A DNA stretch of 64,000 nt from a virus (lineage: Duplodnaviria > Heunggongvirae > Uroviricota > Caudoviricetes): IMG/VR virus record IMGVR_UViG_2883489344_000002; one strand, 5' to 3'. The position numbers and the translations under genes were made by a program. This document shows, in pieces, positions 5,576-43,462 of this stretch. The stretch's first letter is position 1. Each line of letters begins with the position of its first letter. Under the pieces are notes generated by a model. It made no database searches. It saw only the letters and a program-made list of their open reading frames with translations, and was not told where the DNA came from.

Positions 5576-5654
5576 TAAACCGAGCCTCTTGGGTTTGTTA
5601 ATCGGCTCGATCTTATGGAATGTTACATCTCCTTTTTTTGGGGTTAAGTTTTTT

Positions 5655-5686
5655 TCTGGGCAAAGAAAAAGGCGCTCAAAGCGCCT
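5655..5686 (-). terminator. rho-independent terminator after the lysis/spanin genes
   Basis: Minus-strand hairpin GGCGC-TTTGA-GCGCC followed by TTTTTCTTTG. Confidence 0.55.
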
Positions 5687-5764
5687 TGTCAGGATGATGC
5701 GAAGTGTCCTTCGCCTTAGAGGTTTTCCGGTACTTGACAGGCGGCCGCTCATCGAGAGCTACAG

Positions 5765-5883: not shown

Positions 5884-6162
5884 CTATTCTGAGGCAGTTT
5901 TTTTTCTTTGTCCAACACCCCCCACCGTCACACCGTTCACCCTGTTAACGCTGATGTTGTGGTCATTGATGGTAGCCAGCAAGACGCGCGTTTTCTCCAC
6001 GTAGGCGGGGTAGTCGCCATAGGTTTTCACCGTGAAGGCCGGCATTTGGCACATCCAGGCGCTAACCTGTGCCGGCGCGGCCTCAACCTTAACGTTGATA
6101 CTGGGCGTTGAAGTCGCTGACGGCTTGCTGCTGCACCCTGACAACACCGGCAGGCACAGCAT
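5884..6162 (-). CDS. o-spanin (Rz1-like outer-membrane lipoprotein)
   Basis: Internal start MLCLPVLSGC gives a lipobox signal peptide. The gene is small and S/T/P-rich. It is embedded in the 3' end of the i-spanin gene in another frame. Confidence 0.55.
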   Translation of the reverse strand: MLCLPVLSGCSSKPSATSTPSINVKVEAAPAQVSAWMCQMPAFTVKTYGDYPAYVEKTRVLLATINDHNISVNRVNGVTVGGVGQRKKTASE

Positions 6163-6556
6163 GGCCAGCGCAAAGATCTTGTGCCTGGAGCTGCCGGAGC
6201 TGCTGTTGTGCGGCCTCACTTTCGGCCTGGTAATGCTGGGCTTGCTGCTCATTTTCCTGGTTCTCCTGGTTTAATGCCTCGGTGCGCTGCGCATAGGCGT
6301 CACGCTGGGCGTCTGAAATGGCTTTGCTGGTGGCCAGCTGCTCTTTTTCGTTGGTCAGGGTGGTGATGCTGGTGCGCTGGTTGGCCAGCTGCTCGGCCTG
6401 CACCTGATTGACGTCCTTCAGGTCAGACACCCACAGCCAGCCCGCCACCAGCCCGGCCGCGATCGTCATGCCCATGCAAATCTCCACCTTGGCGCGGGTG
6501 GATAGGCCTGAAAGCAGGCTCCAGCTGGTTGAGAGGGCGGTAAACATGCTCATCAT
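6089..6556 (-). CDS. i-spanin (Rz-like)
   Basis: N-terminal TM segment (ICMGMTIAAGLVAGWLWV) followed by Q/E/A-rich coiled coil. 155 aa. It overlaps the lipoprotein ORF. Confidence 0.55.
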   Translation of the reverse strand: MMSMFTALSTSWSLLSGLSTRAKVEICMGMTIAAGLVAGWLWVSDLKDVNQVQAEQLANQRTSITTLTNEKEQLATSKAISDAQRDAYAQRTEALNQENQENEQQAQHYQAESEAAQQQLRQLQAQDLCAGHAVPAGVVRVQQQAVSDFNAQYQR

Positions 6557-33155: not shown

Positions 33156-33318
33156 CCCAGTTGTTCATAGAGTGCTCGTGTCCCACATATAGGACAAGTT
33201 TGTCCAGTTATGAGACATTTTTGTCCGGGTATTGTGTAACGGCTAGTAGACCTATACTAAAATAATGTTTATTTTAAGCTGTCGGCGCTATGCCGGCCTT
33301 GAAAGAGACATTTTGTTG

Positions 33319-34197
33319 ATGAAAAAAATCCAGCGTGTAGAGAAACTATACAAAGAATTCTTGAGCTTCCGGGAGAGGTTCTTAAAAGAGGCCATGGAGT
33401 TGGCCACCGTCACCCAAACCGCCATTCTTACCGGTGAGGCTTATCGTCCCATCGTCATCGTCCCACCTGAGAAATTCTTGCAGTTTGAAAGTGATATAGA
33501 ACTTTGGGCTAAATACGCCTTCAATTTGGAGCAGCTGGCGACTGACGTTAAGCAATTTGGTGCGGCTAAACGCTTGTTTTACCCCTTCCCCAAGCTGATC
33601 ACCAATGCCAGCAACGTGACCTACTATACTAACGAGGCTTCAGCCCAGCAGACGCGCACCGTCAAAGCTGCATTGCGCCAGCTCACTGTAGCCGTCCGTT
33701 CTGCCCGCACCCACCAGCCCCCTGAGCAGCTCGAGCAAGTGCTCGATGGTTTGAATAAAGACCGAGAAATTCTCTCATCCCTTCCCCCTGAAACCGTGCT
33801 TATCTGCCGGCGCACAGGCTATAACGACCTGTATTGCAGCTATGAAACGCCGGATGCATCTGGGCGCGTTGTTACCCGAGTTTCAAGCAATGGCGCATTC
33901 TTTGATGGCCGTGAAGTGACAGAGATCAAACTTGCTGAAAAGGCGCAGACCAATAAAACCTCTTTCTATGACCAGCTGACCCCGCTCCCCATTAAGATGT
34001 ATGGTGGCTGCAAGGTCTATCTGGAACATGAGGCTAAGGCCTTAAAAGAGCATTTGAAAGGAACAAAGCAAGAGCGTCGCATTCAATCCAGAGTAAAGCG
34101 CGCCGCTAAGCAGGCCGCCGAACGAGCCGCTGCCAGGCGCGCCCGAGAAGAAGCCGAGGCTGCCGCCCCCACGCCACCCGTCAACGATATTGAGTAG
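33319..34197 (+). CDS. c1: C1-type immunity repressor
   Basis: The N-terminus IQRVEKLYKEFLSFRERFLKEA aligns with P1 C1 (VYGEQLYQEFVSFRDLFLKKA). 292 aa versus 283 aa in P1. Confidence 0.65.
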   Translation: MKKIQRVEKLYKEFLSFRERFLKEAMELATVTQTAILTGEAYRPIVIVPPEKFLQFESDIELWAKYAFNLEQLATDVKQFGAAKRLFYPFPKLITNASNVTYYTNEASAQQTRTVKAALRQLTVAVRSARTHQPPEQLEQVLDGLNKDREILSSLPPETVLICRRTGYNDLYCSYETPDASGRVVTRVSSNGAFFDGREVTEIKLAEKAQTNKTSFYDQLTPLPIKMYGGCKVYLEHEAKALKEHLKGTKQERRIQSRVKRAAKQAAERAAARRAREEAEAAAPTPPVNDIE

Positions 34198-34216: not shown

Positions 34217-35716
34217 TTAGCCATTAAGCCAATCCTCCGCTTCGCTTCTGCGACCCTCATCAGCCCGACTCAATACCTCACTGGCCGGCACATAGTCCGC
34301 TAACTGGGTAAAGCAGTAGACATCCCATCGGTCGGGCGACTTCAGGTTAAGCTTCAACCTCATTTGCTCCTTCTTCATGATCACCCATTGCCCTGCCTCA
34401 TTGAGGAAGGCCGGGATCTTGCTGGCCTGGTCAGCTGTCTTGGCATCAGGGTCAAGTCTCATGCGCCCCTGGCGCACTGCGTTAGCCGCCAGTACGTTGG
34501 CATAGGCGCGCTGGTTGACATAGTGCCGCTTTAGCGCCTCATTGTGCATACGCTTACCCCAACGAATGCGCTGGGCAAACACCCCGTGCTTTTCCTCCAG
34601 CACGTCGGCCGTAGTAGCACCGATCCCGTCGCCATCGATGGCAATGGAGATATTGGGATACTTGTCATGGGTGCACTCGCTGAAGATGACATCAGCGAAA
34701 CGTGACGGTGTAACGGTAGATTCCATCTCATAGACAATATGCGGCACCACCCGGCGATGTTTGCCATATCCAGACACCCGGAAAATACCCAACACGGACT
34801 TGTCTCGACCGTTCCCCACGTCACAGCAGGCCAGCCAGCCCCAGCCCTTGGCCAGCGGCACACGCCGGCGCATGGCGCGCTCACACACATCACGCCCCAG
34901 TAGATAGCCAGAAAGCGAGGTCGGAAACTCCCCGCGTACCTTGATCAGGTATTCAGGGCTTTCGCGGCCGCCATAATCCATCAGCTTCTCAGCAATGAAC
35001 CGGAGGGTAACCAGGGGGCTTTCCTCAGAGTTGAGCTTAATGGCGGTGTAGATACCCTTGGGGTTCTCTGGGGTCTTGGCCAGGCGGTGATGAGAATCGT
35101 AAAACTCGCCGCTGGTTCGCGTGGGCTGGGAGATCAGCAGTAGGCGGTTATCCTCCTGGGTCAGTGCGCCTTTGATGAAGCCAAATGCCTTGTCAGAGAC
35201 ACCTGACGCCTCATCGATAATGTAGAGCATGTGATCAGCGTGCTCACCGGCCAGCGCCTCCTCATTGCCCAGACGGAAGCCCTTGGGCACCACTTCCCAG
35301 CTGCCCTTTGAGCCGTTCGCAAAGAACTGCATATCAGTTAGCGTGAAGTATTGCGCCAGCCACGGGAAGTTTTTGAGTGCAACTTTCCAGTTTTGCTTAA
35401 GGTACTTAAAAATACCCGTCTTGACCTGCTGTAGCTTGTTTGCTATCAGGATAACGCGGGCTTCAGGGAAGAAAATCATGTAGCAGAGGATCATGATAGA
35501 GGTCATGTCGGACTTACCCGTACCGTGTCCTGACGACACTGAGGTACGGCTACCGTGCTCCTGCACGGCCTCTATAATCATCTCCTGCTGCCAAGTTGGG
35601 GTTTTCCCAAATATCACTTCGGCGGCGGTGATCCAGTCATACCGATACATCACGACCAACCGTTGCCAGCGCGGGTCATCCAAGACCGGCGATCGCAACT
35701 TAGTGCTGGTGGCCAT
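34217..35716 (-). CDS. terminase large subunit (PacB-like)
   Basis: Walker A SGHGTGKS. Walker [11 protein letters not shown]-terminal nuclease-like IAIDGDGIG. Confidence 0.75.
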
Positions 35717-36941
35717 CTATTTCATCATCTCCAAAAAGCAGTTGGTTAATGTCGTCGTCTGGTTCTTCATCGTCAGCAAAGCCAACCGACAGGTTTAAAT
35801 CGTTAAGGCTCCCATCCGCTGCCACGTCACCGTGGCCACCCTCATCGACCAGCTGGTTAACGGCCTCCCGCTTACCGGCCAAGTCTTCATCCAGGGCGGC
35901 CAGGCGCGCAGCGCGCATCTCCCGGGCTTGCTTGTCCAGCTCCATCAAATCGATGGGCACAGCTTGAATGTCATTGGTGGCGGACTGCTTGATCTCATGG
36001 CGCGCCAGCTCCAGCAGCAGGGAGGGCACCTTGTCGCCGTGTGACTCAATCATGATTGCGGTATCGAGGGCGCTGCGGCCGTGTGCCTGACGCTCCTGGT
36101 AGGCTTGCTGGATGCGCTCCGGCTCCTGGAGCTTGCGTAGGTGTTTTTCCTGCTCTCGCTGCTCCCGGGCGTAGCTCTGGCGTATGCCGGCCATGGTGCG
36201 GGCAGCGTCATTGATTGCGCCGGCGGCAGCGGTTACCACGGAAAGGGCTTTAACTAAAGGGGGCTGGCCACCTTCATCGCCTTCTGGTGCCGGCTGTGAA
36301 TCTAGGAACTCCAGCAGCTCTATGCTGATGCGCTCTATCTTGAAGAGATTGACGAGGCTTTTTTCAATCACGATAGCCTCAAGGGCATCAACGCCGGCAG
36401 CGGCCAGCAGCTCCTGTGCTCGGGCTACATCCTCCTCCGCTGGCGCGGTGCCCATCAGTAACTGACCGCCCTTCTTAGTCTGGTCTGACACACGCCCGGA
36501 CTTTGTGCGGCCGGCAACGGCCGTGATCACTTCGCCAACAAGCACAGCAGCAGGTGTCGGCACATCACTGAGGGCGCTGCCCCCGGTGCCGTTTTTAATC
36601 TGTGCGCTTAGCTCCCTGATTTTGCTGGTTTTCTCTGAAGCGGTGATCACACTGCGTTGATCACTGGCGTGATCATCTTTATTGGCGTGATCATTTGATC
36701 GTGGGGAAGACTTTGATCGCTGGGATGATCGCGGAACTGATCGCGCGGGGCTGGCCTGTGGCTTTTCTTTGGCAACGACGCTATCACCGGCACCCAGGTA
36801 ACGGCGGGCAGTGTTGGGGTTTAGTCCATACAATTCAGCATATTGCTTAATGCTGATGTCCTGCTTTGCCCGCATCTGGGCGAAGCGCTCTCTATGCTCT
36901 CCCCAATCTGTCTTCACTGCGATCACCTTCAAAGTTGCCAA
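35700..36941 (-). CDS. terminase small subunit (PacA-like) containing the pac site
   Basis: N-terminal [24 protein letters not shown]. Directly upstream of and overlapping terL. Confidence 0.6.
36644..36743. repeat. pac-site-like cluster of eight TGATCA/TGATCG hexamers (Dam sites) within the terS 5' region
   Basis: Four TGATCA (36644, 36658, 36670, 36688) and four TGATCG (36696, 36714, 36726, 36738) in 100 bp. Confidence 0.65.
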
Positions 36942-37120: not shown

Positions 37121-38230
37121 ATGACAGCGAACAATCAAACCCCAGTCTTTGTGGCTATGGATGGCGGCTCAGGCAACATCTCTATGCGCTTCACTAACGA
37201 CAGGGGCGAGGTGATCAACATCATCACCCCATCTCTGGTGCGTAGAGGCCGCCTGCAACACGGCATGAATGAGTCAACCTCAACGTGGAAGACACAATCT
37301 GGTGAGCTGTTCTCTGTGACCGATGACGGCACAAGCATGGAATTGGTGAACACCTGCGATCCTGAATACCAGCTCAGCGATGCAAACCGCGTCCTGGTGC
37401 TCAACGCAGTGGCACAGGCAGGATTGGGCGGTCGCCCAGTGGTGATCGGTGACACCCTGCCGGCCGTGCAGTATTACGGTGGCAATGGCATTGACACCGC
37501 ACGTATTGAGGCCAAGCGCCGGAACCTCATGCAGCCCATCACCAACTATTCTGGTGAGTTGAAAGCGCCAATCGTTAAAAAAGTGCTGGTATTCCCCGAG
37601 GCGGTGACGGCTTACGTGTCCGCCAGCACCCTGCCAGATGGCTCAGAGCACCCTGAGTTTGAAGGCGTGAAGCGCAGCATCATCATTGACCTTGGCCGCT
37701 TCACGTGTGATATCGCCATTGTGAATGAGCACCTGAAAGTGCTTAGCTGCAAAACCACAGAGCACGGCATCCACGTGATGATTGACCGCCTTCACCTGCT
37801 GCTCCAGGAACACGCAGAGGAAATTGGCCTCACCAACGCGCATGAGATCCAAAAATCCGCCTTGGATGAAATCATCCGTCAAGGTTACATCGGCTCCCGC
37901 GCTGAATCCCGCAAGCACCTGCGCCGTGACATCACCAAATATGTAGAGCAGGCTGCCATGGAGCTGGCCACGCAGATCCGGGAAGATATCCGCTCTGTGC
38001 TGCATAACATGCTATCTATCGATATGTTGCTGTTCGTTGGGGGCGGGGCTAACTGGCTGGGTGGCAAGCTCAGCTATTTGCCGAACCTGGCGGAAGCATG
38101 GCACGACTTCGTTTTCGTGCCTGACCACCCTGAATTAGCCGTGACAGATGGCGTTCACATCCTCATGGAGCAGCGCAAGCCGCAGATCTTGCAAGAGCTG
38201 GCCATGACTGAATTAACCCCGGAGGCCTAA
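37121..38230 (+). CDS. parM: actin-like plasmid segregation ATPase (ParM/StbA family)
   Basis: N-terminal VFVAMDGGSGNI phosphate-1 motif and LLFVGGGANWLGG adenosine motif of the actin fold. 369 aa. Confidence 0.65.
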   Translation: MTANNQTPVFVAMDGGSGNISMRFTNDRGEVINIITPSLVRRGRLQHGMNESTSTWKTQSGELFSVTDDGTSMELVNTCDPEYQLSDANRVLVLNAVAQAGLGGRPVVIGDTLPAVQYYGGNGIDTARIEAKRRNLMQPITNYSGELKAPIVKKVLVFPEAVTAYVSASTLPDGSEHPEFEGVKRSIIIDLGRFTCDIAIVNEHLKVLSCKTTEHGIHVMIDRLHLLLQEHAEEIGLTNAHEIQKSALDEIIRQGYIGSRAESRKHLRRDITKYVEQAAMELATQIREDIRSVLHNMLSIDMLLFVGGGANWLGGKLSYLPNLAEAWHDFVFVPDHPELAVTDGVHILMEQRKPQILQELAMTELTPEA

Positions 38231-38231
38231 T

Positions 38232-38774
38232 ATGGCTGGCGACAACTCAAAAAGAGATAGCTTAAACTTTCGCATTACCGCTCAAACCCGGCAGTCGCCG
38301 GCGGCTGCTCGCTTCATTGATGAATTTCGTGAGAGCAGTGAGTACACCATCAAGCGCAGCAAGATAAACGCTGCCTTGCAGGCAGGCCAAATGCTAATGG
38401 AATGTGGGTTGTTGCCGGTCTTGAACTTCTTGGACACGCCGCAGTTTGCGCGAATGAGCGAACGTGAGCGCCAGCAAGTCTTTCTGGTGCGGTTGCAGCA
38501 GTATTTGGGGGATAACCCCCAGATTATGCAAGCGGAGGCTTCTGAGGTCGTACAGAAGGCTCTGGAGCCGGTGACCGCCCAGGCCACCAGCCCTGAACCA
38601 GTAAAAGCAGAAGAGCCGGCGCACGTGAGTGAACCAGCTCAAAGTAAGCAGGAGGCACCCGCAGCGCCACCAGCTGAAGCAGAAAAGGAAAGCACAGAGC
38701 CATCAGGGGGAAAGGCCAAGCCAGAAAACGCCCGTCTCAGTCGCTTTAGCGATGCCCTGAATGGCGGCTTCTAA
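38232..38774 (+). CDS. parR: ParR-like partition adaptor
   Basis: Immediately follows parM (2-nt gap). Small. Acidic, proline-rich C-terminal tail. Confidence 0.45.
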   Translation: MAGDNSKRDSLNFRITAQTRQSPAAARFIDEFRESSEYTIKRSKINAALQAGQMLMECGLLPVLNFLDTPQFARMSERERQQVFLVRLQQYLGDNPQIMQAEASEVVQKALEPVTAQATSPEPVKAEEPAHVSEPAQSKQEAPAAPPAEAEKESTEPSGGKAKPENARLSRFSDALNGGF

Positions 38775-38777
38775 CGT

Positions 38778-39173
38778 CTAACACATGCGGCGTCTAACCG
38801 CCGCACCCATCAGCTTATGGGCGAGATGCCACATCCGACTCTCTGCCCTTTCCTTATCTTCCTCAGTCATCAGCATCTTTTCCCGTCTTACCGGGTCAAT
38901 CCGCTCTGGATTCCTGCACCGCTTGAAAAATGCATCGTCTAATCGGGTCAGGTGGAAGGTGCGCGGCCTAACTGAATCATCGACCCGGCAGTCTGAGTTG
39001 TGCGACTTGGCGATCGAACTCATGCGCAAGTAGATCTCACTCACCGATGAATCATACTGCGGGTAACGCGCCTTCAACCCCTTCGCCACCTCTTTGGCTG
39101 TAGCCGGCCGGCCAAGCTCAATCAGGTACTGCGATATCTCCCAAGACGTAAATCTTGAGTGTTTGGCTGCCAA
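38778..39173 (-). CDS. hypothetical protein (131 aa)
   Basis: ORF convergent with parR. Confidence 0.4.
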   Translation of the reverse strand: MAAKHSRFTSWEISQYLIELGRPATAKEVAKGLKARYPQYDSSVSEIYLRMSSIAKSHNSDCRVDDSVRPRTFHLTRLDDAFFKRCRNPERIDPVRREKMLMTEEDKERAESRMWHLAHKLMGAAVRRRMC

Positions 39174-39595
39174 TAGACCCCCAATGGGTATACGGGTTTC
39201 ATTGCTGTTTGTGTGTTGCCGGGATGAGAGTTATGGGAGGGGCATTGCGAAGATTAAGGCGCGAGGATGCGCCTTATCGCTACTTCCTTTTCCCCTGCAT
39301 GGTGCGGGGCATAAAGCTACTTGGCATGTACTCACCAGATGACGGTAGAGACAGGGTAAGCACAGAACAAGGAGCCTCTCATTGCCTCTGTGCTTGGCAC
39401 AGGAGCGGGCGGTGGTGACTATATGAAAAGCCACGCAAATAATCAAATTGAGGGCGCTGGTCGCTGGTGGTGGCTTTGCTGGCCATCAGCATTCCAACCA
39501 CCAGCCAAACCCCGACACAACTCTGATTTTTGTCGCCCAAAATGGGAATGCGGGAGTGTCAGGCGTAGTATTAGCGTTTTCTTTGCATCTGAGGG

Positions 39596-40165
39596 ATGTT
39601 GATGGCAGACACTATACTGAGGGACTTGTGGAGAGATCCTCTTCCTGCTGATATCGAGGCTGGGATAACCGCTGAAAAGCTGGTGCTGATGATTCGAGAC
39701 ATCATGCGCACAGACCTGAATGAGCATGAGAAAGGCACCAGACAGCAGGGCGGGCACACATTAAGGGATCATGTCGGTAAGACAAGGCCTGAGATGATAC
39801 AGCGCCTACTCGATGCCGAACGGTTATATGAAACGTCTACCTTTTATCATGGGCAAGAATTTGCTGAGACTGTAGTCGCCAAGGCTATCTTGAGTGATCT
39901 GCATAGGGTCTATAATTGGTACTATAAGATAGACAACCCCCCAGGCGGGGTTATAGCGCGCGCTGGTGGAAAAAAAGATTTTATCCTCATAAAGGTTGAA
40001 AGTAACTTCCCTGTGGGCACACAGGTTAAGTTGCTCAACGATGGTACTTTTGAGGAGGCGATTTGCTCACATGTTTTTGTGAAAATCATTCGCGGAAACA
40101 TTGCCGGACGCAATAAGTATATTGTGACCAGTTTCCCATGCATTCCTAGGCCGGAGGCATCATGA
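39596..40165 (+). CDS. putative toxin-like protein (189 aa)
   Basis: GGAGG RBS. GGHTLRDHVGKT segment. Translationally coupled (ATGA) to a downstream acidic protein. Confidence 0.4.
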   Translation: MLMADTILRDLWRDPLPADIEAGITAEKLVLMIRDIMRTDLNEHEKGTRQQGGHTLRDHVGKTRPEMIQRLLDAERLYETSTFYHGQEFAETVVAKAILSDLHRVYNWYYKIDNPPGGVIARAGGKKDFILIKVESNFPVGTQVKLLNDGTFEEAICSHVFVKIIRGNIAGRNKYIVTSFPCIPRPEAS

Positions 40166-40788
40166 CCACAGCCACCATTGAACGATACCCACATCTTGAT
40201 GAGCTTATGATGGGATTCATCAATCAGGATGCCGAGTCTATGGCCGGCTCCGACAAATATGCAGACATGCTGAAATGCTATTTTGACGTTATGGATCGAG
40301 ATCTTCTGCCCGAGCTGCTGAAAGAGATAGAAGCTTACCAAGCAGAGCATTCTGACAATCTGGTTGAGGATTTTGCCAGAGACTTTCCTTATGGTTACCG
40401 TGTAAGTGAAGCAGAAGAGTTTTTCAGCCTATTAAAGGGTGGCATTGTCACCCAGATTGATAACAAAGAAAAATATCAGGAAGAAGCTGCTGCATGGCAC
40501 AGGGCATTTTGGACTGTTTCTAAAGACGGTGATCCATCTGAGGAAACTGAGGCGACCGTAAAGCCTGACCCGGCAAAAATACAACAATGGCTGCAAAGTG
40601 TGGCAAATTTGTATTCAGTCAATTCGCCAGAATTTGTCGCAGCTCAGGCTGAAGCATTAAGGCTGTTGGGCATTACTGTTGCTGAGCCAGCTTCTCAGAC
40701 GACGCCCACTCAGGAGGATAAGTCGAGTGCGAGTCACGCCGCGTCCTCATCAGCCAAGCCAAGGAAACCCCTTACAGTTATGCGTTAA
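40162..40788 (+). CDS. acidic immunity/antitoxin-like protein (208 aa)
   Basis: ATGA overlap with the upstream gene. D/E-rich. Confidence 0.4.
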   Translation: MTTATIERYPHLDELMMGFINQDAESMAGSDKYADMLKCYFDVMDRDLLPELLKEIEAYQAEHSDNLVEDFARDFPYGYRVSEAEEFFSLLKGGIVTQIDNKEKYQEEAAAWHRAFWTVSKDGDPSEETEATVKPDPAKIQQWLQSVANLYSVNSPEFVAAQAEALRLLGITVAEPASQTTPTQEDKSSASHAASSSAKPRKPLTVMR

Positions 40789-40824
40789 ATCCTCGCCCGC
40801 TGGCAGCCGCCGGCGGGCTTTACT

Positions 40825-41199
40825 TTGGCCGGAGCCACCAGCTTGATCACCCTATCCTCTTCCTATACGCCCTCCACCATTACCAAGCAGTTTGATGTCA
40901 TCGCGTCGCTGATCGTGCGCGGCAGTGAGTATCTGGCCATCTTTGACAGTCGCAAGCCCCTGGCAGCAGCCGTACAGTCGCATATCTCCCCAGCTGATGG
41001 GGAAATGCGGTATCGGGTGGTAGCGATGCTGGAGCTGGCACACCGGGACGATGCTCGGAAAGCCTATGCGGTAGTGCGGTACTGGGAGGAGGCGTCATAT
41101 CTGCCGGCTGGCGTCATAACCGGCGATACTGGGGAGCTGGCCACAGGGCTGTATCAGATCCTGGCACGCCGGCGCGGCCTGACGTTCGTCAGTTACTGA
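40825..41199 (+). CDS. hypothetical protein (124 aa)
   Basis: ORF. Confidence 0.35.
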   Translation: MAGATSLITLSSSYTPSTITKQFDVIASLIVRGSEYLAIFDSRKPLAAAVQSHISPADGEMRYRVVAMLELAHRDDARKAYAVVRYWEEASYLPAGVITGDTGELATGLYQILARRRGLTFVSY

Positions 41200-41606
41200 G
41201 CTGCGCTTTTCGCGTAATCCTCCAGAAGCTCCGCAACGTGACTATCCACCAGCACCTGATCGCCTGGCACATAACGAGGCCAGTCCGGTGCATATGCCGG
41301 GCGCACGATGACTGGCGCGCACCCAAACTGATCGGCAGTAATGTCCACAACATAATGCTCCCCACCGCTGGACACTTCACACCAGTAGTGGCCATATCGG
41401 CCATGCGGCAGGAACAAGCCGCCATCCTCTAGCCCGTCACCACCTCGGATAACCGCCGCATAGCCGGCCAGTGCCGCCGCGCGCTGCACCAGTGTGCAAG
41501 CCATCAGGCATAAGCCGGTAGTGACAGCAATACCCGACATAGAAAGCGCTTCTTCGATTAGGGTGCGGCAGTGGGTGGCAACCTGTAATAATTGACACTC
41601 AGTCAT
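41193..41606 (-). CDS. hypothetical protein (137 aa), Cys/His-containing
   Basis: ORF. Confidence 0.35.
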   Translation of the reverse strand: MTECQLLQVATHCRTLIEEALSMSGIAVTTGLCLMACTLVQRAAALAGYAAVIRGGDGLEDGGLFLPHGRYGHYWCEVSSGGEHYVVDITADQFGCAPVIVRPAYAPDWPRYVPGDQVLVDSHVAELLEDYAKSAAQ

Positions 41607-41677: not shown

Positions 41678-42007
41678 TTAGCTCACCAGCTTCAAATCCT
41701 GCTTGCGGTGCTTCTTATGGTCATCATAGAAATTCTCATGAGTTCCAATAGACAGCAAATACAGCTCAAGCTTTCCTTCTAACCAAGAATAGCCCAAAAG
41801 ATACAGCTCTTTTTCGAGAGAGAATTTGTGAACACGCAAAAATTTGAGATCCCCTTTTTTCTGTTCGCCAATCAAGGGATCGGCAATAACGCGTTCAATT
41901 TCATCTTCTACAATACGCAGTTGCTTGCCGCTCAGTTTAGACAATGCTTTTTCAAAGCGACGAGTTTCGTAAACATCAACCTTGTTTACGCTCTGTTCTC
42001 CGGACAT
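41678..42007 (-). CDS. RelE/ParE-superfamily toxin
   Basis: The C-terminal region LKFLRVHKF...YLLGY...LELYLLSIGTHENFY fits the RelE/ParE fold consensus. The start is taken at MSGEQSV. Confidence 0.55.
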   Translation of the reverse strand: MSGEQSVNKVDVYETRRFEKALSKLSGKQLRIVEDEIERVIADPLIGEQKKGDLKFLRVHKFSLEKELYLLGYSWLEGKLELYLLSIGTHENFYDDHKKHRKQDLKLVS

Positions 42008-42212
42008 ATTTCTTGACCCTTCCATTCTCAACTTCACTTTTAGCTAGTAAGGCTTCGAGAATGAAGGAATACGGCAGATCAGGGTTGTCTTCGGCAATCC
42101 TACCTATTTTAGCCCAATGCTCAATCTGCTTTGGTACGCTGCGGCTTGAAACCTCAGCATACACTTTCACATCATCCACAAAGTCCTCATCAAGACGGAC
42201 ACTAATAGCCAT
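41976..42212 (-). CDS. ParD/RelB-type RHH antitoxin
   Basis: MAISVRLDEDFVDDVKVYAEVSSRSVPKQIEHWAKIG matches the ParD antitoxin pattern. 78 aa. Upstream of and overlapping the toxin. Confidence 0.6.
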   Translation of the reverse strand: MAISVRLDEDFVDDVKVYAEVSSRSVPKQIEHWAKIGRIAEDNPDLPYSFILEALLAKSEVENGRVKKYVRRTERKQG

Positions 42213-43054: not shown

Positions 43055-43462
43055 ATGCAGGTGATTTTTATGGGCTTCCCTTCCCCAGCGCAAGACTACG
43101 CGCGCCCCCGGCTTAGCCTGGATGCTATTGCTCGGGTCTCTATCCCTGCCACCTACTTCATGCGGGCGGCAGACTATTTACCATCAGTAGGTATTCTCAA
43201 AGGCTCAGTATTGGTGATCGACCGCAGTTTAGACCCCAAACACGGATCGCTCCTGATTGCCTGGCTGGGCGGTGAATTTAAGGTTGTGCGTTACGTGAGT
43301 GTGCCGGAGCCGGCATTACAGCGGTTAACAAAAGAGCATGATGTAATTAAATTGAGCGATTATGCGGTGTCTGGCGGTGATGACTCGCCTATCTGGGGGG
43401 TGATTGCGTATGTGCTGTCTGACGTGTCGGGGCGCGTGTTTAATCAAGCACCAGGCATTTAG
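43055..43462 (+). CDS. humD: UmuD'/HumD-like S24 peptidase-family protein
   Basis: GFPSPAQDY...ATYFMRA...VIDRSL...GEFKVVRY...VIAYV aligns with UmuD. Confidence 0.7.
   Translation: MQVIFMGFPSPAQDYARPRLSLDAIARVSIPATYFMRAADYLPSVGILKGSVLVIDRSLDPKHGSLLIAWLGGEFKVVRYVSVPEPALQRLTKEHDVIKLSDYAVSGGDDSPIWGVIAYVLSDVSGRVFNQAPGI

Follow-up and report, generated by a model that had tools for sequence, protein, structure and literature searches.

A probable RNase A-like toxin/immunity gene pair beside lpa in a Nissabacter phage-plasmid distantly related to P1

Two overlapping genes in a 64-kb stretch of tailed-phage DNA (the window, to which all coordinates refer) raise the question whether they encode a toxin and its immunity protein and, if so, whether such a toxin is directed against other bacteria or acts in the cell that makes it. 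The original prediction had read them as a translationally coupled toxin/immunity pair, neither protein being recognised as a known TA family, preceded by a 420-bp non-coding region.

Identification of a probable toxin and its immunity protein

The open reading frames 39596–40165 (189 aa) and 40162–40788 (208 aa) were present as described, including their overlap. The operon comprises the following features:

39591–39595, plus strand: Shine-Dalgarno sequence GAGGG of the toxin gene, read from the sequence, 6 nt before ATG 39602
39602–40165, plus strand: toxin gene, 187 aa; the in-frame ATG at 39596 is an alternative start giving 189 aa
40153–40157, plus strand: Shine-Dalgarno sequence GGAGG of the immunity gene, read from the sequence, within the 3' end of the toxin gene
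40162–40165, plus strand: ATGA stop/start overlap of the toxin and immunity genes (translational coupling)
40162–40788, plus strand: immunity gene, 208 aa, PF18593
40795–40818, plus strand: intrinsic terminator behind both genes, with a GC-rich stem of 10 bp and TTTACTTT after it

The first reading frame stood, but its translation probably begins at ATG 39602 and yields 187 aa (MADTIL...). This start is preferred because the GAGGG sequence directly abuts ATG 39596 but is 6 nt from ATG 39602, and because MADTIL is the start in both the NCBI model and a 63%-identical homologue. The Shine-Dalgarno stretch was 93% conserved in the Logan homologue L001. Residue numbers of the toxin follow the 189-aa numbering throughout. 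The predicted GGAGG ribosome-binding site was found 4 nt before the immunity ATG and therefore serves the immunity gene, not the toxin gene.

The toxin consists of a clade-specific acidic helical N-terminal region without a hydrophobic stretch (residues ~1–48) and an RNase A-like nuclease domain (residues ~50–181), matched by PF18431 (RNAse_A_bac) over profile positions 1–113 of 113 (E 1.3e-11, 45.7 bits, cut-off 27). NCBIfam NF041883 matched weakly (E 1.7e-5, 24.9 bits), far under the model cut-off of 200. The block that had looked conserved, GGHTLRDHVGKT at residues 52–63, aligned with the first residues of the crystallised RNase domain of CdiA-CT(Ykris), GGHLIDRHVGKT. The predicted fold is of the RNase A type, kidney-shaped with alpha and beta elements. 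Three of four active-site residues are conserved: H59, R70 and T178 correspond to His175, Arg186 and Thr276 of CdiA-CT(Ykris), and position 180 is a Phe where that enzyme has Tyr278. The exchange Y278A almost abolishes the activity of CdiA-CT(Ykris), and homologues often have Phe here, also where an immunity gene is kept (Batot et al. 2017, PMC5435912). No signal peptide or lipobox was evident in the toxin sequence, and PAAR, MIX, Rhs, VgrG, LXG or VENN modules were detected neither fused to the toxin in a profile search nor upstream.

The second protein is strongly acidic, as had been stated (pI 4.60, net charge –16). Its residues 8–79 matched PF18593 (CdiI_2; E 3e-8, 34.7 bits, cut-off 26.7); residues ~1–95 form the CdiI_2 domain and residues ~96–208 a variable C-terminal extension of ~110 aa. 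A profile of five immunity homologues matched 5e3e_A weakly (E 0.045). Asp23 in the motif INQDA, invariant in the five-sequence alignment, aligns with Asp21 in the NQD motif of CdiI(Ykris), which bonds the catalytic His175 of the toxin in the crystal complex (Batot et al. 2017, PMC5435912). The tails of the homologues showed no similarity to one another, and that of the present protein had no detectable relatives; coil was predicted over its last ~40 aa in a low-confidence single-sequence AF2 model (pLDDT 57). DNA-binding domains of the HTH, RHH or AbrB type were not matched in the immunity protein at E ≤ 0.1.

Both proteins therefore belong to curated Pfam families, contrary to the original statement, and NCBI already names them accordingly: 'RNase A-like domain-containing protein' and 'contact-dependent growth inhibition system immunity protein'. 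The matches were to toxin and immunity families and not to virion or replication functions. Since both reading frames score above the curated Pfam thresholds, the pair is more than a chance arrangement. With the catalytic His, Arg and Thr and the immunity Asp conserved, the coupled toxin/immunity reading gained support, and judged from sequence the two genes are very probably a genuine RNase toxin/immunity pair.

Operon structure and the cassette-specific 5' region

Upstream of the toxin gene two further features were assigned to the cassette:

39415–39443, plus strand: candidate sigma-70 promoter (GTGACT-17-AATAAT) for the toxin operon, 9 of 12 matches in a consensus scan
39447–39601, plus strand: 5' region or UTR of the toxin operon, specific to the cassette and delimited by a drop in identity to L001

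The candidate promoter was present in the window, in L001 and in the Chimaeribacter homologue L007, and missing in sister elements without the cassette; we infer that it drives the toxin operon. It overlaps the promoter of the neighbouring gene lpa back-to-back. Identity to L001 dropped from 98–100% to 68–77% within 39447–39601, a segment containing Chi sites at 39463 (plus strand) and 39498 (minus strand). The GC content of the cassette was 47%, compared with 53% for the window and 54–60% for the flanks. The ATGA overlap recurs in L001, and in L007 toxin and immunity genes are separated by 8 nt. The terminator folded with –23.3 kcal/mol (z = –3.2).

That the upstream region holds no convincing open reading frame was borne out. 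Seven mechanical reading frames of 53–104 aa lie in or overlap 39174–39601, none with a Pfam match, and indels in L007 break their frames. In L001 the frame 39390–39602 is cut off by a stop after 15 codons, and so is the upstream frame 39424–39602, which has a TGATG overlap with the toxin start and in L007 shows mostly non-synonymous changes. A small protein encoded in this gap was rejected on these grounds, lack of a Pfam match and unconserved frames. Upstream of the toxin there was no VENN motif or CdiA remnant, and seven in-frame stops occurred in 142 codons.

The lpa promoter and leader

The non-coding stretch extends over 39174–39601 (428 bp). About 270 of the 428 bp belong to lpa on the opposite strand:

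38778–39173, minus strand: lpa, late-promoter activator, TTG start (PF25716, E 3.9e-26; phrog_1704), backbone gene flanking the cassette
39243–39381, minus strand: conserved, structured lpa leader RNA (RNAalifold on seven loci)
39256–39275, minus strand: leader hairpin II (AAGGCGC-N6-GCGCCUU), followed by a U-rich tract
39313–39378, minus strand: leader stem-loop I
39418–39446, minus strand: lpa promoter, sigma-70-like, TTGATT-17-TATAGT

The lpa product and P1 Lpa share 39% identity. In the promoter, the –35 TTG and the –10 hexamer are conserved across seven related loci; sister elements without the toxin keep promoter and leader as well. In the leader alignment of the seven loci 93.7% of the cells were paired, compared with 40–60% in slid controls; six pairs had both sides changed, and none of 500 shuffles reached the real pairing. 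A covariance model of the leader found exactly one copy per locus in the seven related loci (83–120 bits) and none in P1. Rfam families were absent from 38900–39800 on either strand, and exact-pattern scans for the leader box retrieved nothing from viral or metagenome collections. The predicted hairpin GGCGC-GAGGAT-GCGCC is present at 39256–39275; with its full stem, AAGGCGC-GAGGAT-GCGCCTT, it folded with –14 kcal/mol (z = –2.4 to –2.6). By this comparative evidence the conserved part of the upstream region is the lpa promoter and leader, and not mainly an accessory of the toxin/immunity pair.

Three candidate regulatory sequences were discarded. A second AAGGCGC..GCGCCTT stem at 5669–5687 was an ordinary terminator rather than a shared operator. 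The P1 late-promoter box AAGTNACTT, with a one-mismatch copy at 39314, was no more frequent than chance predicts (18 copies within the window, 12–26 in shuffled sequence), and no convincing copy of the P1-type C1 operator ATTGCTCTAATAAATTT was found within the window.

The phage-plasmid and its accessory slot

The replicon carrying the pair is a distant P1-like phage-plasmid of Nissabacter. P1-like marks are C1, PacA/PacB, Lpa, HumD, a tail sheath and Dmt-like and PmgS-like genes. For the locus and for the surrounding 24 kb, megablast retrieved no useful match among phages and plasmids, which places the element distant from sequenced relatives of P1.

The pair occupies a variable accessory slot adjoining lpa. 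In P1 the same slot, upstream of lpa, holds phd-doc-pdcAB, and in four of five sister elements it holds type II toxin-antitoxin (TA) pairs: RelE/ParE with an HTH protein in L010 and L011, which share the C1-pacBA-parMR-lpa synteny, and, with the slot reading frames judged by eye, a PrlF/YhaV-type pair in L012 and RelE with an HTH protein in L013. The window itself carries a further pair in this slot:

41678–42212, minus strand: ParD/ParE-like type II TA pair (existing PF15781 and PF11903 annotation of the identical contig), same accessory slot

The immediate neighbours of the toxin/immunity pair, orf124 and orf137, had no Pfam match. There is no CdiA-sized gene in the 64-kb window, as its largest reading frame has only 688 aa. 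Among the annotated neighbours within ±10 kb of the pair no cdiB was present, and the called genes in the same range included no vgrG, hcp, PAAR or adaptor genes. The PADLOC-DB 2.0 models matched neither the toxin and the immunity protein nor four neighbours at E ≤ 0.1.

Homologues and divergence

Relatives of the toxin are very rare: an exhaustive HMMER search of 1.84 billion proteins yielded 23 representatives at E ≤ 1e-3. Word-indexed protein searches with the toxin and the immunity protein returned only the queries and one homologue; tblastn of the toxin against phages and of the immunity protein against plasmids found nothing, nor did an alignment search with the toxin in viral contigs. 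The stand-alone full-length homologues of the toxin are 34–63% identical and have an adjacent immunity gene; in those that match its length, the N-terminal ~48 aa are conserved.

On the chromosome of Chimaeribacter arupi a remnant of such an element has been reduced to integrase, lpa, toxin, immunity gene and orf116. Persistence of the pair in this remnant is expected if the module resists loss. Toxin and immunity protein diverge far faster than their flanking genes: between the window and C. arupi the identities were 34% for the toxin and 26% for the immunity protein, compared with 85% for Lpa and 50% for orf124.

Comparison with known systems

The closest characterised relative is the CdiA-CT/CdiI pair of Yersinia kristensenii ATCC 33638 (PDB 5E3E; PMC5435912). 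Both systems share the toxin fold (PF18431), the GGH..HVGKT motif, the catalytic His, Arg and Thr, an immunity protein of PF18593 with an Asp contacting the catalytic His, and the order toxin before immunity gene. The present toxin differs in being a free protein of 187 aa instead of the tip of a multi-thousand-residue CdiA, without VENN, a cytoplasm-entry domain or, among the annotated neighbours, cdiB. Identity over the toxin domain is ~24%, with Phe in place of Tyr278; the immunity protein has 208 aa including the variable tail, in contrast to 104 aa, and the pair is carried by a phage-plasmid. In systems for contact-dependent growth inhibition (CDI) the toxin forms the C-terminus of a large filamentous CdiA, demarcated by VENN or ELYN; the present toxin is not such a C-terminus.

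Traits of type II TA systems are present, namely a mobile element as carrier and two small adjacent genes, predicted to be co-transcribed, for a toxin and its protein inhibitor. The phd-doc operon of P1 has the same position relative to lpa and pacAB, and there too a plasmid prophage carries two translationally coupled genes for a toxin and its inhibitor. Their products come from unrelated protein families; Phd is a DNA-binding antitoxin and Doc a Fic-type kinase. The antitoxin gene comes first in P1, whereas the toxin gene comes first here, and the orientation to lpa is opposite. Addiction is proven for phd-doc, whereas for the present pair it is only proposed.

The same two families occur as stand-alone genes on conjugative plasmids of Pantoea (e.g. 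pPag2, NC_014563; WP_013360143/WP_013360142). There, too, the genes are adjacent and abutting on a mobile replicon without a CDI locus, with a location near repA. Identity is ~30%, the Pantoea toxin has 277 aa with a long N-terminal region, its immunity protein consists of the domain only (104 aa), and the carrier is a conjugative plasmid rather than a phage-plasmid. The closest representative (P0013) has hydrophobic stretches in its N-terminal region.

Ribocin (RbcN) of Pseudomonas aeruginosa is likewise a stand-alone bacterial protein with an RNase A-like fold. According to its description (PMC13189344), only 15% identity to CdiA-CT(Ykris) was reported and activity needs His, Thr and Tyr at equivalent positions; unlike the present toxin, Ribocin is presented there as a virulence factor cleaving helix 69 of eukaryotic rRNA. 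RNase A-like lipoproteins of Bacillus anthracis/cereus (PMC5435912; NF041883) combine the same domain and adjacent immunity genes with a use other than as polymorphic effectors. These are lipid-anchored and little diversified, in contrast to the strongly diversified toxin of the window, which lacks a signal sequence and lipobox. Three traits of the present pair are unusual: a stand-alone toxin without CdiA, Rhs or signal peptide, an immunity protein with a variable tail and a location in the slot of a phage-plasmid.

Proposed role and alternative explanations

In the proposed mechanism, the operon would supply a metal-independent endoribonuclease of the RNase A fold together with its cognate CdiI_2-type immunity protein, which by homology is expected to cover the active site and block the access of RNA. 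As the toxin is free and has no obvious signal sequence, it may act within the producing cell. Location on a P1-like phage-plasmid, in the variable slot next to lpa, suggests a working mode similar to type II TA systems; the lower GC content of the cassette, the C. arupi remnant and the stand-alone Pantoea pairs agree with it. Translational coupling would keep the immunity protein in step with the toxin; upon loss of the element, or when an invading phage shuts off host expression, the RNase would be freed and the cell killed or arrested. The phage-plasmid would be stabilised in this way and possibly defended by abortive infection as well. Candidate for the labile or regulatory part is the variable tail at the C-terminus of the immunity protein. 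To a TA-like cassette acting inside the cell, for stabilisation or defence, we give about an even chance. Several observations count against it: the immunity protein has no DNA-binding domain for autoregulation, neither protein was matched by PADLOC, the element already has a conventional addiction module in ParDE, the pair diverges fast, described members of the family are mostly exported effectors, Phe180 replaces Tyr278 and the model of the immunity tail is of low confidence.

The main rival is an effector/immunity pair for inter-bacterial competition that travels as cargo of the phage-plasmid. The toxin would leave the cell by host export, e.g. as type VI secretion system (T6SS) cargo via the N-terminal region of ~48 aa, or be released by phage lysis, while the immunity protein would shield lysogens. 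Members of the RNase A-like family are mostly exported effectors of CDI, Rhs/T6SS and T7SS, a group of putative T6SS effectors of Enterobacteriaceae carries the domain, and diversification of this kind is regarded as typical of toxins used in competition (Batot et al. 2017, PMC5435912). A listing of Klebsiella T6SS effectors likewise includes the domain, and both the rapid divergence of the pair between conserved flanks and the N-terminal region common to the clade would fit. Yet nothing of a delivery system (signal peptide, PAAR, Rhs, VgrG, LXG, VENN) is fused or upstream, the neighbours orf124 and orf137 have no Pfam match, a CdiA-sized frame is lacking in the window and the slot otherwise houses intracellular TA modules; we consider this explanation rather unlikely. 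Much the same low weight falls to a dedicated anti-phage system, for abortive infection or superinfection exclusion, with the RNase released or activated by infection with another phage. An accessory slot of a temperate element beside other TA pairs, an RNase toxin kept in check by an inhibitor protein and an immunity tail that could serve as sensor agree with it. However, no PADLOC model was matched, no sensor domain was recognised, and the sequence offers nothing to tell such a system from plain addiction.

Decay of an orphan cdiA-CT/cdiI fragment, or an inactivated toxin without present function, is highly improbable. It could be argued from the Phe at a position where the Y278A enzyme is nearly inactive and from the rarity of relatives. 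Both reading frames are intact, though, with good Shine-Dalgarno sequences, coupling and a terminator; His, Arg and Thr are conserved, and stand-alone homologues retain the N-terminus and the adjacent immunity gene. The orphan cdiA-CT was rejected because of the in-frame stops and the missing VENN upstream, where no CdiA sequence was found. Inactivation through the change from Tyr to Phe was not upheld because Phe is a common natural variant according to Batot et al. (PMC5435912).

A wider reading would join the TA-like cassette with the regulation of lpa. It holds that P1-like phage-plasmids have domesticated an RNase A toxin/CdiI pair of the CDI type as a new TA family similar to type II, with the fast-evolving immunity tail as labile or sensing part, and that lpa is gated by an undescribed leader RNA, acting as attenuator or as an sRNA of ~160 nt. 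The back-to-back overlap with the lpa promoter would, within this reading, tie expression of toxin and immunity protein to the lysis-lysogeny state. As a whole this reading is unlikely.

Implications

Curated families already include the pair that had appeared unknown; more original is a side result of the analysis, the conserved structured leader upstream of lpa in a clade of P1-like elements. Should the toxin act intracellularly, a family of toxins familiar from warfare by contact or secretion would serve also the stabilisation or defence of a phage-plasmid, without a delivery domain, and would fill the same slot as the classic phd-doc of P1. If true, the locus would be a concrete case of polymorphic-toxin and TA systems sharing one pool of toxins and immunity proteins. 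Moreover, it would allow the change from a stable 'immunity' protein to a labile 'antitoxin' to be studied in a natural setting, with the added tail as the obvious candidate for its cause.

Identity and organization of the toxin/immunity pair

Two open reading frames on the same strand, overlapping by ATGA, were present as originally predicted, together with a GGAGG ribosome binding site for the second gene. The second protein is indeed strongly acidic (pI 4.6, net charge -16); the nuclease part of the toxin is basic (pI 8.9).

Features of the two-gene operon
39591-39595 (+), toxin Shine-Dalgarno sequence GAGGG, abutting ATG 39596 and 6 nt from ATG 39602
39596-40165 (+), toxin ORF, 189 aa from the first ATG, 187 aa from ATG 39602
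40153-40157 (+), GGAGG of the immunity gene, 4 nt before its ATG
40162-40788 (+), immunity ORF, 208 aa
40795-40818 (+), terminator-like hairpin with T-rich tail after the second stop codon, -23.3 kcal/mol

The predicted 189-aa first protein exists as a reading frame, but the second ATG, 39602, is the most likely translation start, for a product of 187 aa, because the sole Shine-Dalgarno sequence touches the first ATG, and the NCBI model and the closest homologue start with MADTIL. Toxin residue numbers follow the 189-aa count (start 39596). The strong hairpin with its T-rich tail marks the pair as a closed operon.

The original prediction recognized no family for either protein; both belong to known ones. 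The first protein matched the whole profile of Pfam PF18431, 'Bacterial CdiA-CT RNAse A domain' (E 1.3e-11, 45.7 bits, cut-off 27), residues 8-79 of the second matched PF18593, 'CdiI immunity protein' (E 3e-8, 34.7 bits, cut-off 26.7), and NCBI already names them in Nissabacter sp. SGAir0207 'RNase A-like domain-containing protein' and 'contact-dependent growth inhibition system immunity protein'. With both matches above cut-off the toxin/immunity reading was correct, and we are highly confident that the pair is genuine. For the studied toxin of the family His175, Arg186, Thr276 and Tyr278 are important for activity, and CdiI shields the active site, its Asp21 bonded to His175 (Batot et al., PMC5435912). 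In an alignment of 24 sequences H59, R70 and T178 of the toxin are kept and are invariant or nearly so, while D23 of the immunity protein, invariant among five homologues, aligns with Asp21. Position 180 holds Phe in place of Tyr in this alignment; as Phe is frequent among homologues at the position of Tyr278 (Batot et al., PMC5435912), it was not taken as a sign of inactivation. By homology the toxin is predicted to act as a metal-independent endoribonuclease, with the immunity protein tightly blocking its active site.

A free-standing toxin clade with variable immunity tails

The toxin departs from the described family in standing free. Translated in frame, the sequence upstream of it has seven stops and contains neither VENN nor a CdiA remnant, the largest ORF in the window has 688 aa, and domain searches and annotations revealed no secretion-related domains fused to the toxin or in neighbouring genes. 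Toxin residues 1 to ~48 are acidic, predicted helical and without hydrophobic signal; their pattern DLW..P.P...KL....DIM.TDL..HE is common to a small clade of 154-194-aa proteins. Members of this clade are scarce: when 1.84 billion representatives were searched exhaustively with HMMER, 23 proteins reached E <= 1e-3, and 7 reached E <= 1e-10.

In every clade member with a fully readable neighbour, the next gene encodes a CdiI_2-like N-domain followed by a long tail. Full immunity lengths are 208 aa in the window, 248 aa in Chimaeribacter arupi and about 257 aa in two metagenome contigs, and the tails of these proteins have no detectable similarity to each other. A fifth case, on the homologous Logan contig L001, is cut off by the contig end after 135 immunity codons, already beyond the ~95-aa domain. 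In contrast, the immunity protein of the Pantoea plasmid homologues is domain-only (104 aa). A weak single-sequence model of the window protein (pLDDT 57) suggests a helical N-domain and coil-like last ~40 residues.

The accessory slot of a P1-like phage-plasmid

The contig to which the window belongs measures 101.9 kb and is a distant P1-like phage-plasmid.

Backbone features
33265-34197, C1-type repressor
34217-36941, PacB and PacA terminase
37121-38774, ParM-like segregation protein and partner
38778-39173 (-), late-promoter activator Lpa, TTG start, 39% identical to P1 Lpa
41678-42212, ParE/ParD-like pair
43055-43462, HumD
Further backbone genes: tail sheath, tail protein, Dmt-like methyltransferase, PmgS-like protein, tyrosine recombinase

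The P1 gene order is humD-phd-doc-pdcA-pdcB-lpa-pacA-pacB, thus the RNase/CdiI operon sits in the stretch of P1's addiction module. Five sisters with an Lpa backbone were compared, three of them IMG/VR genomes of 90-97 kb found via Lpa. Pantoea sp. CP034366 and Citrobacter freundii CP056338 have the order C1-pacBA-parMR-lpa and, beside lpa, an annotated RelE/ParE toxin with an HTH protein; the slots of the IMG/VR sisters, judged by eye from ORF translations, hold a PrlF/YhaV-type pair, a RelE and HTH pair, and an autotransporter. A type II TA pair thus occupies the slot in five of six comparators (P1 and the five sisters, the three IMG/VR slots judged by eye). In the window this TA slot harbours an RNase A-like/CdiI_2 pair of a new, stand-alone type.

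The cassette has a GC content of 47%, compared with 53% for the window and 54-60% for the flanks. Identity to contig L001 is 98-100% over 39191-39430, 68-77% in the stretch directly 5' of the toxin gene and 52-83% inside it; to C. arupi it is 85% for Lpa, 50% for the product of orf124, the ORF 3' of the immunity gene, 34% for the toxin and 26% for the immunity protein. In C. arupi NZ_PJZI01000005 (L007, 5930-9654) an integrase-lpa-toxin-immunity-orf116 block stands alone among chromosomal genes, flanked by cytochrome bd-like and iron-uptake genes, with no tRNA found within 16.5 kb. This mini-island resembles the decayed remains of a P1-like element in which the toxin pair was retained. Pantoea conjugative plasmids carry similar stand-alone RNase A-like/CdiI pairs beside repA. 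DUF1493-type small proteins occur near such pairs in a metagenome contig (L008, 824-1611, by eye) and in Pantoea pPag2 (L004, 4853-5056, annotated so).

Several observations concern the backbone itself. In P1 lpa and pacA are adjacent, whereas a ParM-like gene and its partner lie between them in the window and in the Pantoea/Citrobacter sister plasmids (L010, 4364-5957; L011, 4393-5956). Despite strong Pfam and PHROG matches lpa, with its TTG start, is absent from the gene calls of the identical Logan contig L002 and from the PLSDB annotation of L010 (~6001-6335) and L011 (~6001-6337). After the operon terminator follows orf124 (40825-41199, +; phrog_7522, unknown function), whose C. arupi copy (L007, 9304-9654) is 50% identical and which phages RCS47 and SJ46 carry as well, at a distance from lpa; it seems to belong to the backbone and not to the pair. 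A 137-aa ORF (41193-41606, -) between cassette and parDE had no Pfam, PADLOC or PHROG match, and spaced Cys, His and Asp residues were seen by eye. Across the 64 kb the Chi octamer GCTGGTGG is present 73 times, both strands counted, where shuffles predict about 2.4; two of these copies are upstream of the toxin, at 39463 (+) and 39498 (-).

Possible roles of the pair

We favour, at about even confidence, an intracellular, TA-like role, since the toxin lacks a delivery domain, translation is coupled, the slot is a TA hotspot of a plasmid-prophage and the Pantoea pairs lie beside repA. RNase toxin and immunity protein would then stabilize the phage-plasmid, abortive infection may be an added outcome, and the immunity tail would be a candidate labile or regulatory part. 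Against this role count the lack of a DNA-binding domain in the immunity protein in the Pfam search, the lack of a match to PADLOC models, the presence of ParDE in the same slot and the strong diversification of the pair.

Such diversification is classically tied to competition toxins (PMC5435912), and the strongest alternative is that the toxin is exported as a competition effector, e.g., a T6SS cargo recruited via the N-terminal region; with no secretion-related domain found in the toxin, we regard this as rather improbable. A dedicated defence role, which overlaps with the favoured TA-like model and likewise faces the negative PADLOC result, is equally doubtful. That the pair is a dead remnant is very improbable; the active-site residues H59, R70 and T178 are retained.

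A conserved leader RNA upstream of lpa

The 420-bp region upstream of the pair had been described as non-coding. No credible gene was found in 39174-39601, where seven mechanical ORFs lacked Pfam matches and had broken frames in homologous loci, but most of the region belongs to lpa on the opposite strand. An upstream ORF of 59 codons (39424-39602, +), ending with TGATG over the toxin start, is probably no gene, because its substitutions relative to C. arupi are mostly non-synonymous and only 15 codons exist in L001. The GGCGC-containing hairpin noticed originally was recovered on the lpa strand.

Features of the lpa/toxin intergenic region and of a similar stem
39243-39446 (-), lpa promoter and leader
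39446-39418 (-), lpa promoter, of a sigma-70 type shared by all seven lpa-bearing loci, in the window TTGATT-17-TATAGT
39378-39313 (-), stem-loop I after the promoter, long and imperfect
39275-39256 (-), hairpin II, AAGGCGC-N5-6-GCGCCUU, stem invariant, loop variable
39415-39443 (+), candidate toxin-operon promoter GTGACT-17-AATAAT, the only consensus match for the operon
39447-39601, remaining ~155 nt, cassette-specific
5576-5752 (-), region of a 626-aa ORF with a terminator-like stem

The candidate toxin-operon promoter lies back-to-back with the lpa promoter on the same 32 bp and occurs only in cassette-bearing loci; a coupling of both promoters is speculation. The second AAGGCGC...GCGCCTT stem (5669-5687, -), with TTTTCTTTG after it, forms a canonical terminator and lies within the mechanical ORF of 626 aa, whose gene probably starts near 5576, as the PHROG match begins at residue 60.

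The leader was located in C. arupi (L007, 7631-7761), in the sister plasmids L010 (6415-6544) and L011 (6413-6541) and in the IMG/VR sisters L012 (2822-2958), L013 (2785-2913) and L014 (2794-2912). In this small sample of seven sequences 93.7% of cells were paired, compared with 40-60% when the partners were slid; six pairs were altered on both sides, which none of 500 shuffles matched, and several invariant G-U pairs fit the lpa-sense strand only. A covariance model found exactly one copy per locus, always upstream of lpa (83-120 bits), and none in a 14.8-kb P1 segment covering the lpa region (L003), where the annotated lpa promoter precedes its gene by about 45 nt. The leader had no Rfam match. 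Hairpin II is followed by a U-rich tract, UAAUCUU in the window and UUUUUCUU in three sisters; with its invariant stem and this tail, the hairpin may serve as an attenuator or form the end of an ~160-nt sRNA. The leader thus looks like an attenuator or an ~160-nt RNA ahead of the late-gene activator lpa, and it is the most original observation from this region.
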